From the NCBI GenBank assembly GCA_964016885.1, contig OZ024746.1:60822001-60886000 (forward strand): a stretch of 64,000 nt of DNA, written 5' to 3'. This DNA comes from Eledone cirrhosa. Lineage: Eukaryota. Each line of letters opens with the position of its first letter. Within the stretch, counting starts at the first letter, position 1. Positions 1 to 28,984 of this stretch are shown one piece after another. Position numbers and translations under genes: made by a program. The notes under the pieces were generated by a model that did no database searches, was not told where the DNA came from, and saw only the letters and a list, made by a program, of their open reading frames with translations.

Positions 1-1648
1 TAACTTCCAATCATTGCTATCATATGTTATGAAAGCTGGAACCCCCTGCCAGTTGACCCCCAACATCATTTAAAAGATTATACTGCAGGATGCTGAATGA
101 AGCCAACTACTACTACTACTACTCAATGGAGTGTGAACTGTTTGCATTGCAGCACTTGCTGTTTAATATTGAGGGAGAAAGCAAGGCTTGAACTGGTCTT
201 GCCAATACTGTCACAATGCTAGTCAGGATCCAATTGCTCCCACTGTCATTTTGTTAGGACACTTTTTATAAATTGATTTAGTTGTCACATGTATTTAATT
301 TAATGTCAATGCTTTCTAAAGAAAAGAGAAAATGACTTGGCAGCGCCTCTTAAAATTTGAACTAAGAAACTATATGAAAGCAAGAGAAAATGTATTAGAA
401 AAACACAATACTTGGAAACAAAATATTTTCCTTGGAATTTAAAAAGAGAAAAAAATATTGCAAATGTAATATCTAATGTTCTGTTATTGCATTGCATAAC
501 TTAGTTCTTGTGGTACTTATATTATTCCTGTATAATTACAATTATATGTGGAGGCACATCTACTTCTCTTTTCTGTATATGGTTCCCATACTGCATTTTT
601 TTTACACTCTGTATTCTTTTTATTTGACATCTATGCCAATTTATCTATATTACTATTACTAATTATTACCACAACTACTAGTGCTACTACTGCTATTTAA
701 AAAAAAAATTTGTTTACTATTCTTAGTTTAGTAAATGTGCGCGCTTTTAAGTTCTTGTTATGTTGTCAATCTGTAAGCTATTTTGTGTCTAAATAAGAAA
801 ACTTAAGAACGAAGTATGTGGAACATACATGCTAAAAACATTTTCTACTAATTTAAAGCTTAGAATTATTAGTAATACATATTTTTCTTTTTTACCCCCT
901 TCCTTTTTTCTGTCTGTCTCTTGAGTCAGTATAAAATAAATGCAGCAATACCATCCTGGCTACATTGTGCAGTATATCTACATTGACAAAGGATTGTTTA
1001 ACTGCTTAGGGATAGATAAGATTCTTTATTGTTTTTTTTTTATTTATTAAGTTCAAATCACAGCAACACTATTTATTGAATGTATGCAACTTCCAGTTAC
1101 AAATGATGCAAATTTTCCACTATTTTGAATAATTTTTTGATTTTTATTTGGTTAAAGCAGGGTAGATGGCTAGAACAGCATAGTGCCAGGTTGGATGCTT
1201 TAGTGTAATCAGTTTGGTACCTCACTGTTGTTCTAACTTTAAAATCCCTATTGGACTCAATTTTTTTTTCTTCATCCTTCAAGACCTTATCAATATACTG
1301 AGGTTAGTTAACTTTCTCCCTACAAAAAATTTGCCTGAATCCTGAATGATCTGATTCCATGATAGTTAACTTCCATGATAGACAATTGTAAGAGTTAATA
1401 AATTTTAATTTTAGTTATTTCAGTTTTGTTGGAGAATGAATACATATATATATTATATTAGTACTGAAATATTTCAACTTCTATATATAATTTCACCTGG
1501 CAAGCACTGTAATTAGTTTAACCTACGAAAACAAATTTGGTGGCAGGGGTGGGGCACTAAACTGTAACTATCACTTGATTTTCATGAGTCTATATGTAAT
1601 ATATGTTGACAAAAATAAATATCTAATGTCTATTATTCACTGTTTAAG

Positions 1649-1690
1649 GGTTAGTCCATCTCATGGTCCCAGCGGACTGAATGGAATATG
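1649..1690 (+). promoter_or_regulatory. Candidate poison/micro-exon in OGT intron (tandem acceptors at 1648 and 1654)
   Basis: CTAAT 1623-1627, AG-free run to AAG|GGTTAG|, donor ATG|GTAAGG at 1691; starts a GC-richer island. Confidence 0.5.
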
Positions 1691-2705
1691 GTAAGGGAGA
1701 CGTACTGGAACACTTGCGGGTAGCCAACTGCGCCTTGAGAACAGTAAATAGGGATGTGGTCCAGGGGCCAAGAATGCTAGAAGTCTCCAGTGTCATAGGT
1801 GTGACAACAAACCTATCAAGAGACGCTGATATTTTGACAGTTTGCCCTCTTTGGTCTGACGACCACTGAAGCCAAGCACACTAGGTTGTCGCTGGAAAAG
1901 GTGTTGCGACTTGTAGCATTCCAGATGAGGGTCTTACTGACATGGAATGGGAGGGTTCTCATGTCTGGGCTGCTAGCTGAAATTGAGGAGGGAAGCCCAT
2001 GGCATCCAGACCATGGTTTATGATCTTGTTAAGAGCTGCACTGTAATTAGTAGTTAGTTTACATTACACGTTTAATGCAATTTTTTTAAGAGTCTTTTTT
2101 CTTGCATATTAATTCAACAGTTGCTTTTTTTGCATTGGCAAGGCTTCATTGTCCAATACAGATTATAACCAGGTCTAGAATATATCCCCATCTCAAAGTG
2201 CAGGTGTGCAGCTAAATGGTCATAACTCCATCTAGTTTCACAACTGTTTTCTAAATTTATTATATTGAATGATTTTCATTTGATTTATATCTTAGGAGTT
2301 AATCAAACCTATATATGCAATTAGGTTTTTTCTTAAAGGTGAGAGCAGTATATAGTAAGGCTAGCTGCTTGCTTATGGGGTAAAGCATGTGGATGATTAC
2401 TTGGTAATGTAAATATGCCAGTATTCTACATATATTAGTATGGTTAAGTTATAATGAAGTCTTTACTAACAGAGGGATTCATAAAAGGCATTACTTATAT
2501 TTGTCCCTATAAAAAATTTGACAAATTTTATTGCTAATATGTAATTTTAAACTGGATGTTATCCATTGAATAAAATTTCTGTGAGTTGATTTTAATCAAT
2601 TTTCATATTTTTAAAAACTTGACTGCTGATTATTCACTGTTGTCAACATTCTGTACCACTGAACACTAATGATCGTCTTTTTTGATTTCTACACAAGCAA
2701 TGCAG

Positions 2706-2951
2706 GTGTGCTCACTGCTATCAAATAGTGTGCCCGCCTGGTCAGTCGGTCACTCGTGTCTCCTGGGTCAGTCACTAGCTGTGGGTCGGTCAGCGGTTGG
2801 TCTCATCTTCTACCTACTCCCGGCCCAGCCTGGCCAGGGCAGGCTGCTGCAGCAGCACCAGGACCAAAGGACAGACTCCTCCTAGTTGACTACTACTACT
2901 ACTACTACAGAGCTATGAATGAATACATTGGTATTAGTAGACATCTCTGAG
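2706..2951 (+). promoter_or_regulatory. Candidate poison/decoy exon in OGT intron
   Basis: CACTAAT 2664-2670, T-tract, AAG(2697) and CAG(2705) acceptors, in-frame TAG 2883-2885, cluster of weak donors 2931-2982. Confidence 0.55.
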
Positions 2952-3550
2952 GTGTGAGCTGAAGGTATTGTATACTTAAATGTGAGTCAATTTCAGTTGT
3001 AGTCCCTGGCTATTTCTCTCCTATTTCTGCAGTGTAATGACATCTCTTTTACTGATTCATGATGGTCAAGTGTGATTTGGGGCAGTTTGGATTGCAAATT
3101 TTTCACCACCTAATGATATATGTATATTTTCCTTTGGTTATAGTTTCTGCTGCTGGCTTCAAAATTATTTACTCTTCATTGTCATAAAGGACACAGCTTA
3201 TTTTGACTCAACCTTCAAAGTTGTTGATGGAAGTAATATTTGTTTTAATTTCAGTTATTTTAGATGATGAGAGCATTTAGTTCATATAACTCTTTAACAT
3301 TCTCTCGACTAATAAGCGATCTTATTCAATTAAAAAGAAATGTTAATTTAAGAACTGACAAGATTAATTAGTTTATCCTCCCCTCTCACTTTTACAAATG
3401 CTGGTGCTTGTCTGTTAAAAATAAACCCATTGCAAGATGTTAGAATTATAACAAAATCCAAAATATTGTGTATATGTGTGTAGTAAATATACATTTTTTA
3501 TTGCAAATATCAGGCATCTTTAGTTGGAACTATCTACTTGGCATTATTAT

Positions 3551-3922
3551 TGGCAGTGGATTGGCAGTATCGGTAGAGTCGGACCCCATGCTATGCAATG
3601 TAGAGTTACGGCCTTTTACGGTCTGAGTTCAAATTCTGCCGAGGTTAACTTTGCCGTTCATTCTTACGGGGTCGATAAAATAAAGTACCAGTAATACACT
3701 GGGATAATTGCTGGCTTTGTGCCAAAAGTAGAAACAATTATTATTGGCAGTATCGGTAGAGGGTCGGACGCCAAGCTTTGACGCATAGTTACGGCCCTTG
3801 CCATTCTGAGTTCAAATCCCACCGAGGTTAACTTTGCCTTTCATCCTTACGGGGTCGATAAAATAAAGTACCAGTAATGCACTGGGTAATTGCTGGCCTT
3901 GTGCCAAAAGTAGAAACAATTA
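3551..3922 (+). mobile_element. Tandem pair of tRNA-derived SINEs (Meta-domain-like)
   Basis: A box TGGCAGTATCGG, B box GAGTTCAAATCC, core GCCTTTCATCCTTACGGGGTCGATAAAATAAAGTACCAG; other copies near 13365, 24870, 34053, 35100, 40078(-), 44078, 48215, 55105, 55460(-), 61408(-), 61560. Confidence 0.85.
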
Positions 3923-6900
3923 TTGTAGCTGCATGTGCAGTTTCACTTCTTAGTATTGACATTTGAATGTTTTGATATTTGTTCAAAAACTTTGTTGGCA
4001 AAAGAATGTTTTTTTTATTATCACAAATGTTTCTTTGGCACACTCCAGTTTATTTGTTGACTCTGATAATCTTAATTTTAAAGAATGTATTTTGTCATGA
4101 GGTTAAGTGTAATTAATATATAATTATGCTCTGACCTCCCAAAATACATTGCAAATTTTGTAAAAATTATTTACTTAATTCTTAAATTATTTTAATGGAT
4201 TCTTTGTATTTTTTGTAATTTATTATTTTTTTTGTTTCTATGGAAAGTGTAAATTTTGTAACCTGAAAATCTAATTGATGTAGTTTGGAATTCTTTGATT
4301 ACAAATGGCTTTATTGGCAAGTACAGTTAACTAAAAATACATATTGAATTTAGTTCAACACTTTTCAGTTTGTGTTTTGATTTATATCTTTTTTTTTTAA
4401 TATTACTTGTGCTTTATGGAAGAAAAACTTTAAAATGCAATTTAGCACCTTAATATGATATATTAAAATGTTATTTTCTTGGTATATAATTATATTTTTC
4501 AGAAAGAATATATAATTTTTCTTTATGCATTTACTAACATAAGAACGGGATTAAGAATCTTCAAATGAAATTACATGGGCAAGAGAATTAGAACAATACT
4601 TCACTTTAGTTGAATGGATATTTATAATCCTTATTTCAATTTAGTGAATACTTACTATTATTTAAACATTCTCTATTCTGTCCGCTGAGGCTGCGAGGCA
4701 GTCAGTACGTGGGCCCCCATTTGCTCATAGTAGTGAGAAATAGGGAGAGCGGGAGGGATGGAGGCAGTGACAGTGGGAGTTTGGTTCCTTTGTGTTCAGA
4801 CTTATATTTTACACACATAATCTTGTTATTAAAGACAAGGTTAACAGTTTAATGGTTCTAGGTATTCAGGTGTTAAATTTTCAGTATAATTGTACATATT
4901 CTTTTTTGAGCTATAAAAAAGGGGAGCAACTATTCTCGTAGATTGCCTGAAGGAAAAATTGTTTTAAGAATGCAATACCTAGAGTAAAGTTTGAGTCTAA
5001 TTTAGGATACCTGCATCTTGAAGGCAGCCACCACTCCTTTAGTTAATTATGGTAAACTTAGAAACTATATATTTGCAACCATTATGTTTTTCTATTTTAT
5101 ATGTACATCTAAATTAATGCAGGAAACTGCAAAAAAATGAGAAGATAGTTTCAGTAGAAATGGTTCACATCTTGTGAACCATTGAATATTTTACATTCTG
5201 TTGTTTGTTTTCCATTGAATTCCTAGAACAGTTCACCATCCTCCTTGTTTATATCAGTAAACTGTGATGGACCATAGAAAGTTATTTATAATGCTAGTAA
5301 TGGCAAATAGACGTTTGAAAAGTCTTAGTTTGTTTTATTCAATTGTAAAATGTTCCTTGAACTTAAAAAAAAAGAAAATTATTACAAGTATGACAAGATA
5401 TTATACTATTTGTTTAGAATACTTAATTTCAAATTATTTTAAAACACCCATTCTATTGCTATAGAATTTTGATAATCTTTTGATTTAATATGAAATTGTT
5501 TTTCCAGTTTTTGGGGTTGCTCTGCAATATTGGTATTATGTTATGAGTGTTTGCTCAGGGAAATATTGAAAAATATTCAGTTCTATTAAAATAAAGCTCT
5601 TGTAAATTTGAAAATATGCTGTGTTGTATGGAATACACTTTCTTTATAAGATTTTGCTACACAAGTTAGATAATGAAATTTCTATATTCAAGTTTCTCAT
5701 GTCTTAAGTACACAATGGTTGTTTTATAAATTAATTGTTTTCTTTCCATTTTCATATTACAAAATTATACAGGAATATATAGTAAATTTTGTTGGTTTAA
5801 CGTCAAAGTGGTAATTTATAATTATATTTATTATATCTCTTTTTGCTGATAATATTGTTAGGTATTTCTGGTTGATTTCTTTAAATGGTGGTTTTGTTTT
5901 ATTTTCCCTCCTTCTGTTTCTTTCCATCCTGCTGTCCCATGTAACAGCTTTACCTCTTTATGCCATTATACTGCAGTTGAAAGGATATTGATATGCCCTA
6001 AAATACAAGAAAAATAGAAAACAAAAACACCAGCATCAAATAACTTAATTTGTATTATTAAAAGTGACTACTATAATACTGATTTTTTAAGGTTCTTTTC
6101 ATATTTTTTCATACAAGCTTTTTTTTATAAAGTCATTTTTCATAACATCACTAATTTCTACAAAATTATTGCTAATTTTTCAGAATAATTGTTTTTCTAT
6201 CTTTTTCATTTTTCTTCTATTAGATTTTTTTTTTACATTTTATTTCGTTTCTTTACAATTTTTTCTTTGTCGATTTCATTTTTATATTTCTATATCAATA
6301 TTTTTGTGTGTATGTATTTTATGCAGTTACTTTTTTATTCCCTTAGCGCGCGAAGCATTGCGCGGACGCACTTGGTCGCAGGCGAATAGAAACTTTTTTT
6401 TAGATGTCAGGTTTCTTCTCCTGTATTTTAAAGTTGCCTCATCAGGTCATGGATGACATGTTAAATCACTTGTGTGTCTTCGATTTATCCAATATTTCTC
6501 GGATGATAAATTTTAGCAGTATGAAATAGATAATTCACTTTGGACATATAGATGACACATTTAAAGTGTTGCATTTTAGAAAACTTTAAATAGTAGTTGT
6601 TGATGAAAGGACTGTTAATTTTCAACAATAAGACTAATATCTTGTTTTAGTTGAGAAAGGACTGTTCTTGAGCTAAAGTAAATACACTACTATAAAAAAG
6701 AGAACTTATCATTGGAATTTTAACTAGAAAAATTTGAAAATTTATAATTAGTCATGTGTGGTTACCAATGGGTTGAGGCAGCTTGTTGGAAGAAAAGTGA
6801 AACCTAATTATTTTATTTCACCAAGCAGAACAGCTTTCCTCTTCTATTATTACAGGAGAAGAGAAATGGCATCTTTTTGTTTTCCTTTTATATACATATA

Positions 6901-7438
6901 TATTTAATTCTATATATGTATGTATATAAAATGTGTGAATGTGTGTATGCATATATATATATATGTGTGTGTGTATGTATGCATATATATATATATATGA
7001 TTTTTGTTTTACTTTGGTGTTATCAGCACAAGTCATCACTAATGTATGGTTTATAGAATCAAAGTTTCTTTTTAGCAGCTAACATTTCAAATATATAACT
7101 TAAAAAGTTTTAGATTCATCTAAATTTGTATTTATCAATATTTAAATATTGCTTTTTTTTTAAATTCTTTTTTTTTCTCCAGCTAAATCTCAAAAATTAT
7201 ACTTTGGTTCAGATAAAATTGTTAGGTTGCCTAAGAAAACCTGGTTCTAAACTCCTATATGCATGGTTAGTGCTTAACACAGTATATTGCGCGCGTTTAG
7301 TTCATAGTGCAAAACTTCTACTGGAGCGCAGGCGACTTGAGCGCTTTGCTTTTGGATGTTCTTTTTTGACTTACTTTGTCATTTGCAAAAACTAATGCAT
7401 TTATTTTGTATATAACTGTAAATTTGCCTACACTTTAG

Positions 7439-28984
<21,546 letters not shown>

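Follow-up and report, generated by a model that had tools for sequence, protein, structure and literature searches.

The human OGT gene contains an intron with a decoy or poison exon that bears a premature termination codon and is served by two 3′ and two 5′ splice sites; this exon is reported to be stabilised by cycloheximide or by loss of UPF1 (PMC7261177, PMC12017769, PMC6097662). Deleting or blocking the decoy is described as abolishing retention of the intron, and its inclusion as rising with OGA inhibition (PMC5588854, PMC6097662, PMC7373989, PMC7261177, PMC12017769, PMC12894984). The available text of Park 2017 gives the OGT ISS as conserved down to jawless fish and Drosophila OGT as being without an ISS-like element (PMC5588854), and that of a fly study mentions only possible control of OGT splicing (PMC11623933). 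A literature search, judged from listings and the openings of abstracts and covering few subscription papers, returned no poison exon in an invertebrate OGT gene. How O-GlcNAc is sensed at the OGT intron is described in the literature as unresolved.

The window, as we call the whole 64-kb stretch of octopus DNA analysed here, carries the 3′ part of an OGT gene in its first 29 kb. One of its exons matches OGT of Octopus sinensis at 99% and cuttlefish OGT at 96%. Using tblastn, residues 164-1035 of the OGT protein P0003 map to exons spanning 7439-28981, whereas no match in the window exists for residues 1-163; the upstream exon lies outside it. Position 7439, where residue 164 begins, is the start of the equivalent of exon 5 (7439-7555, ACYLKAIET...HHFDK). 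It is followed by the remaining coding exons for residues 203-1035 (10332-28981), whose homologues carry Pfam PF13844 and TPR families. Upstream of it, positions 1-7438 of the + strand form the 3′ part of a phase 0 intron that interrupts RLDEAK/ACYLK; its 5′ end lies before the window start and its length exceeds 7.4 kb. The vertebrate-type OGT P0081 reads RLEEAK/ACYLK at the same place. As judged from the RL[DE]EAK/ACYLK shared by P0003 and P0081, the intron position is orthologous to that of the vertebrate detained intron 4. We take RLDEAK/ACYLK to be the human exon 4/5 boundary, and our exon numbers are those of the human gene. Elsewhere in the gene, an alternative donor 9 nt downstream at 12433-12442 would add VRK, and the Octopus and cuttlefish records include isoforms three residues apart.

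Within this intron lies a frameshifting, stop-carrying cassette of 284 nt (2698-2981, + strand) that is conserved in cephalopods. Our reading, to which we give a probability of roughly 0.7, is that it is a poison or decoy exon diverting OGT pre-mRNA from productive splicing and probably, by analogy with the human gene, responding to O-GlcNAc. We have little doubt that the cassette is a real spliced exon, strongly favour a regulatory poison or decoy role, and lean with more caution, on the human analogy, towards O-GlcNAc control; all these gradings are judgements and not computed values.

The limits of the exon are given by protein tails, contig ends and splice motifs, all on the + strand. Upstream lies the predicted branch point CACTAATGATC (2664-2674), with the putative branch A at 2669. 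According to the first-pass annotation, the human OGT intron-4 decoy would also be preceded by ACTAATGATC. Downstream of the putative branch A, the nearest AG is 2696-2697, which closes a pyrimidine tract with an AAG acceptor (2675-2697) supported by the tails of proteins P0137 and P0006 and by contig ends in two runs, X1 and X7. A tandem CAG acceptor follows at 2703-2705. Entry at 2698 meets the stop TAG at 2776-2778, where P0137 also ends, and entry at 2706 gives 59 codons before TAG at 2883-2885. The supported donor AAT/GTGAGT (2979-2987; last exon base 2981) is backed by P0006 and by contig record 14 of run X24. Minor donor-like sites lie at 2930, 2951, 2953 and 2964 (2928-2970), and the AG before 2965 serves as an acceptor in the cuttlefish model P0006. 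An (ACT)n run (2889-2909; repeat families D3 and D11) lies within the exon. The motifs listed in the first-pass annotation, namely CACTAATGATC, the AAG at 2695-2697, the CAG, both TAGs with their reading frames and five GT donors, had all been located correctly. A stop generally triggers NMD when it precedes a later junction by more than 50-55 nt; the two premature stops, 203 nt (2776-2778) and 96 nt (2883-2885) upstream of the 2981 donor, both lie beyond that distance.

When scored with matrices derived from 16 introns of the same gene, the splice motifs do not by themselves exceed chance expectation. The acceptors at 2698 and 2706 rank 61 and 26 among 379 AG sites, and the donors starting at 2931, 2952, 2954, 2965 and 2982 rank 166, 7, 191, 41 and 15 of 429 GT sites. 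HCTAAY occurs 17 times in 1-7438. The proposed cluster of weak donors is not statistically unusual: the maximum in any 60-nt window is 2 sites matching U1 at 6/9 positions or better, and 2930-2990 stays below it. What lies beyond chance is conservation together with splice evidence.

The strongest donor in the element, CTG/GTCAGT at 2740 (rank 3 of 429), was absent from the first-pass annotation; the cuttlefish model P0006 cuts at this site. Together with seven donor-like copies of GTC[AG][GC] it occupies 2738-2793 (+ strand). The seven copies, at 2741-2793, make up the densest 60 nt on the + strand of the 64 kb, and their density was reached in 1 of 2000 dinucleotide shuffles, the motif having been picked post hoc after viewing the sequence. 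We regard the array as a candidate U1 decoy array. The region 2640-3020 shows no unusual fold (z = 0.57). A search of Rfam with 1-12500 gave 4 matches, all below the gathering score and 3 of them on a TA/TG microsatellite. Positions 1-7600 contain 205 inverted repeats; the 25 longest place no arm within the exon, though one arm (2586-2625) falls upstream of it.

Cephalopod proteins place the cassette between coding exons and show its splicing into transcripts. Among short proteins, the best hit for the exon region is P0137, the 189-aa product of an ORF on 2 Logan contigs. Its residues 1-163 are identical to cuttlefish P0005 (163/163) and nearly so to Octopus (153/163), and its tail is identical over 26/26 residues to the 2698 frame of the window, ending at the same stop. 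The tails of P0137 and P0006 both begin with QCRC in that frame. Because ORF calling on such contigs does not allow for introns, the unbroken run of P0137 across exon 4 and the cassette points to a spliced transcript, and splicing of exon 4 to 2698 is thus shown in a cuttlefish-type transcript. P0133, the downstream ORF that begins in exon 5, equals P0137 both in its number of contigs (2) and in the length of the longest (3871 nt). The two proteins fit a single, fully spliced, exon-including mRNA; if they share their contigs, as seems probable, 3871 nt leave no room for a multi-kb intron. From the other side, the models P0006 and P0278 of the cuttlefish Acanthosepion pharaonis carry 20 extra residues at the junction, equal to window 2698-2740 plus 2965-2981, and P0006 reads GIVYLN/ACYLK, which supports splicing of the 2981 donor to exon 5. 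The OGT proteins of octopus and cuttlefish are identical at 956/1026 residues, and the octopodiform and decapodiform lines are reported to have diverged about 285-340 My ago (PMC10925132).

Further evidence on the junctions comes from contigs of four sequencing runs (X1, X7, X11 and X24) aligned on 1-12500, in which junctions are read from contig ends and not from junction letters. The RNA status of the runs is a guess based on exon-joined contigs and breaks at exon edges, and is marked as questionable for X24; among the listed runs that contain the stretch none is recorded as RNA, which speaks neither for nor against it. At a word length of 31 letters, joining 2698 to an exon that ends in AAG predicts a contig end at 2724 and a restart at 2695 (2723 and 2694 if the base before AAG is C). 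Joining to 2706 predicts 2733 and 2704, and joining to exon 5 predicts 7466 and 7437. The latter served as a positive control: ends at 7466 were seen in X1, X11 and X24, and starts at 7437 in X1 and X11. At the cassette, a contig end at 2724 and a restart at 2695 are seen in both X1 and X7, which come from different organisms (A and B) and different studies (P1 and P4). A contig of 2069 letters from X24 (record 14) matches 943-2981 perfectly and has 30 letters to spare, the exact number predicted for 2981 joined to 7439, although these letters themselves are unread. X24 comes from organism D, whose runs also contain the stretch best. Predicted ends are therefore matched exactly in three of the four runs, two at the acceptor and one at the donor. 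We strongly infer that the junction of exon 4 to 2698 also exists in two octopod relatives and that 2981 is spliced to exon 5 in the window's own species.

A break at 2704, the sign of entry at 2706, is absent from the listed pieces in 4/4 runs, though contigs drop rare forms, and none of the listed contigs breaks at the minor donors 2930, 2951, 2953 or 2964. At 2695 X24 is unbroken, as is X11 throughout 2475-3374, and at 2981 a break is missing from X1, X7 and X11; each junction is seen in only 1-2 of the 4 runs. The tandem acceptors of the first-pass annotation thus hold for 2698, with no evidence of use at 2706, and its donor list holds for 2981/2982, none of 2931-2965 being shown as used. 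Its proposal of a poison exon in OGT intron 4 gains conservation in cephalopods and independent support for both outer junctions, with the boundaries corrected to 2698-2981. Regarding retention, record 27 of X7 carries the last 220 nt of the intron (7219-7438) on a contig with spliced downstream exons, which fits intron retention and may also be a mosaic contig. Contigs of X24 cover most of the >7.4-kb intron; contigs give no level of retention and may be mosaics. The gaps in X24 cover, at 3016 and across bin 10426-10842, carry no weight as evidence.

Conservation was assessed from the difference rows between relatives' contigs and the window. A conserved block with approximate limits of 2600 and 3115 (+ strand) surrounds the exon. 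Among the 40 of 277 difference rows listed, 15 differences fall in 2509-2599, 1 in 2600-3015, 1 at 3016 and 10 in 3117-3201, so that 2600-3015 is a substitution desert compared with 10-17% in the flanks. Record 3 of X1 has 19 differences in 2475-2724, which leaves at most 4 for 2600-2724. The sole exon substitution in the listed rows, 2748 G>A, is silent in the 2698 frame (n=1). The cross-species conservation that the first-pass annotation had asked about is present in cephalopods, with 26/26 and 20/20 residues shared with cuttlefish. At the nucleotide level it exceeds that of the flanking intron, seen directly in octopods and via translation only in cuttlefish.

Other parts of the intron also stand out. 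A second conserved block at 1-357 (core 67-194) is ~96% alike in relatives, with no difference listed in 67-194. It contains a strong acceptor at 89 (rank 5 of 379), a stop at the fourth codon and, at 104-126, a run similar to the (ACT)n run of the exon. We consider it a candidate second poison exon; the listed contigs are unbroken at 87. GC-rich patches lie near the 3′ end of the intron (7219-7438 and 6340-6385), and three relatives align over 7219-7466. The heptamer GCAGGCG is present twice, at 6378 and at 7328. GGTCGCAGGCG (6374) is also found ~140-150 nt before exon 5 in 7/66 other introns, all from one related group and hence one independent group, and does not occur in the 160 kb downstream. 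The patch at 1650-2040 is GC-richer than the rest of the intron, has little cover in the relatives' contigs (bin 1669-2085) and is possibly a lineage-specific insertion. Finally, a dispersed, SINE-like repeat occupies 3544-3924 as two head-to-tail copies with a period of 183; it is very abundant in the runs, where it fills the listed contig joints.

A mechanism can be proposed along the following lines. Binding of U2 at 2669, the branch point, would lead to selection of the first AG (2697), while U1 would be spread across weak sites, those of the 2740 array and of 2951-2981. The weak, competing donors would slow commitment and splicing would often stall, leaving one or both half-introns retained. 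Completed inclusion would place a stop 203 nt before the next junction and send the mRNA to NMD, and direct splicing of exon 4 to exon 5, skipping the cassette, would yield the full enzyme. NMD, decoy activity and O-GlcNAc control are carried over here from human work and would apply to the octopus gene by analogy.

The same junction was also followed in other animals. Among 120 listed of 313 short OGT proteins, 69 have tails starting with V, 32 have other tails, 7 are spliced, 3 end at the junction and 9 were unparsed. The 69 V-starting tails were set aside, as they fit read-through of a retained intron or genomic DNA. The 32 others continue past exon 4 with a tail incompatible with the GT start of the intron. 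Two pairs in an oyster cluster resemble P0137/P0133, namely P0323/P0322 (longest contig 3735) and P0326/P0325 (4445), and other tailed proteins cluster with Culex and a land snail. The NCBI model P0186 (source name beginning 'Dr') also ends in a tail that is not an intron start. Tails from the genome models P0139, P0181, P0202 and P0219 may be predictor artefacts. Separately, the OGT fragments P0140, P0155 and P0232 have MLRLS, MLRSG and MLRLY tails after exon 4, suggesting a shared cassette in another lineage.

The comparison also took in 80 metagenome loci, 23 of which are intron-free, and hence transcript-like, downstream of exon 5. Eight of these 23 run through the junction, including L005 and L006, which were pattern-labelled as interrupted and are one continuous match. 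The other 15 are interrupted at or next to the junction, and none has a second break; 3 of the 15, with at most 23 nt upstream, are of little informative value, and some may be genomic DNA from genes with few introns. In L042 and L015, from another animal, splicing to exon 5 starts at an internal GT donor and the sequence upstream is retained, a form that would also describe the X24 contig. The inserts at the junction in oyster-type, arthropod and other invertebrate sequences are unrelated to the octopus element. Five window blocks were compared by BLAST with 66 upstream or intron sequences of other animals, and none gave a match below E 0.05 (best 0.053). An 11-mer shared at the 2964 site by the gastropod-like L030 insert was rejected, as its alignment was equalled by 89/500 and 412/1000 shuffles. 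CTAATGAT occurs in 5/66 introns from 3 independent groups, L046 being closest at the branch-point and tract region in a raw comparison. A further group (L035, L041, L060, L062, L066, L068 and L072) has a conserved intronic block ~630-780 nt before exon 5 with a branch-point-like motif, T tract and tandem AGs followed by a GC-rich core, likely a decoy exon in another animal group. Overall, homology outside cephalopods is positional only.

This result bears on whether the element is a real, conserved poison exon that responds to tissue, development or stress and not to O-GlcNAc, having arisen independently of the vertebrate decoy. The lack of likeness to the 66 other loci and, by eye, to the human donor region would fit such an origin, as would the length of 284 nt against 143-153 nt in human and the statement of Park et al., in the text available, that Drosophila OGT is without an ISS-like element (PMC5588854). 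However, the intron position, the tandem acceptors and the several donors are as in human, and a single origin accounts better than several for the inserts that oyster-type and arthropod sequences carry at this junction. We consider this reading unlikely.

The conserved tail could instead serve a protein. The 189-aa product, a TPR-only OGT with a Cys-rich tail, would escape NMD and compete with the full enzyme for partners. That octopus and cuttlefish share 26/26 residues and that the one listed exon substitution is silent (n=1) agrees with this. Yet conservation spans the branch point, the tract and ~240 nt past the stop, and is therefore at the nucleotide level; the tails of other animals vary in length and sequence, and the stop lies 203 nt ahead of a junction. 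We regard a functional short protein as quite improbable.

The cuttlefish models suggest another arrangement, in which an inner intron (2741-2964) is removed and micro-exons of 43 and 17 nt lengthen the TPR region in full-length OGT by 20 residues without shifting the frame (QCRCAHCYQIVCPPGIVYLN). P0006 and P0278 show exactly this, the 2740 donor ranks 3 of 429 and the pieces sum to 60 nt. Both models, however, come from one contig and one annotation, and an insert search among proteins of 575-1831 aa gave P0006 only (1/24 candidates). The 2965 acceptor is without a pyrimidine tract and ranks 133 of 379, the listed contigs are unbroken at 2740 and 2965 in 4/4 runs, and a predictor bound to keep the frame would be expected to invent such an intron. 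We hold the micro-exons to be very improbable, and the cuttlefish OGT models with the 20-residue insert are likely an annotation error. Least credible is functionless, cryptic splicing at chance motifs of a long AT-rich intron, which would suit motif scores no better than many others in the intron and junction signs in some runs only, but is already largely refuted by 26/26 and 20/20 translated identity to cuttlefish over ~300 My and by the octopod substitution desert.

A poison or decoy exon diverting OGT pre-mRNA thus remains our preferred reading, and the OGT feedback switch is likely much older than vertebrates. A broader proposal, which we regard as evenly balanced, is an ancestral bilaterian O-GlcNAc rheostat. 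Its intron position and poison/decoy architecture would predate the protostome/deuterostome split, and its exon sequence would have been replaced in each lineage and then frozen (cephalopods, oysters, dipterans and vertebrates), the cephalopod version having its own U1 decoy array. The mollusc version of the element predicts that OGT homeostasis in invertebrates, hinted at in flies, acts via the OGT exon 4/5 junction.

Compared with known systems, the octopus element is most like the decoy/ISS of vertebrate OGT intron 4, in the same gene and at the same intron position (Park 2017, PMC5588854; Parra 2018, PMC6097662; Parra 2020, PMC7373989). As in the vertebrate decoy described in the accessible text of Tan 2020 (PMC7261177) and Govindan and Conrad 2025 (PMC12017769), it is an unannotated cassette with a premature stop. 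Both have two close acceptors, several weak donors, conservation far above the flanking intron and partly spliced forms that keep one half-intron. The multiple splice sites typical of a decoy are present in octopus, with one acceptor and one donor showing use. Differences concern size, as the exon has 284 nt and the intron >7.4 kb versus 143-153 nt and 3.3 kb in human, and content, as the GTC[AG][GC] array and the (ACT)n run go unmentioned for the human decoy in the available text. The human sequence compared was the 26-nt 5′ splice-site morpholino only; it contains two donors spaced by 7 nt and, when compared by eye, did not resemble the octopus element. O-GlcNAc regulation, SFSWAP dependence, nuclear detention and NMD are features described in vertebrates, whereas the octopus element is known from sequence and contigs. 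The exon resembles the human OGT decoy in anatomy and corresponds to it in intron position.

The decoy exons of other retained introns (SF3B1 i4, ARGLU1, DDX39B and SNRNP70; Parra 2018) are likewise described as cryptic, non-coding cassettes whose splice sites compete within large introns (>1 kb); those of the SF3B1 i4 type are defined by retention-promoting activity, whereas the octopus element is likened to them by anatomy. Among invertebrates, Drosophila sxc/Ogt is reportedly regulated via splicing of a long intron and is described as being without an ISS-like element, with no poison exon mentioned in the available text (PMC5588854, PMC11623933). The mollusc version appears unrelated in sequence to the vertebrate OGT decoy but is equally frozen, which makes the two a natural comparison: features that survive in both, such as spacing, tandem acceptors, weak donors and trans factors in common, would be expected to form the core of the switch.
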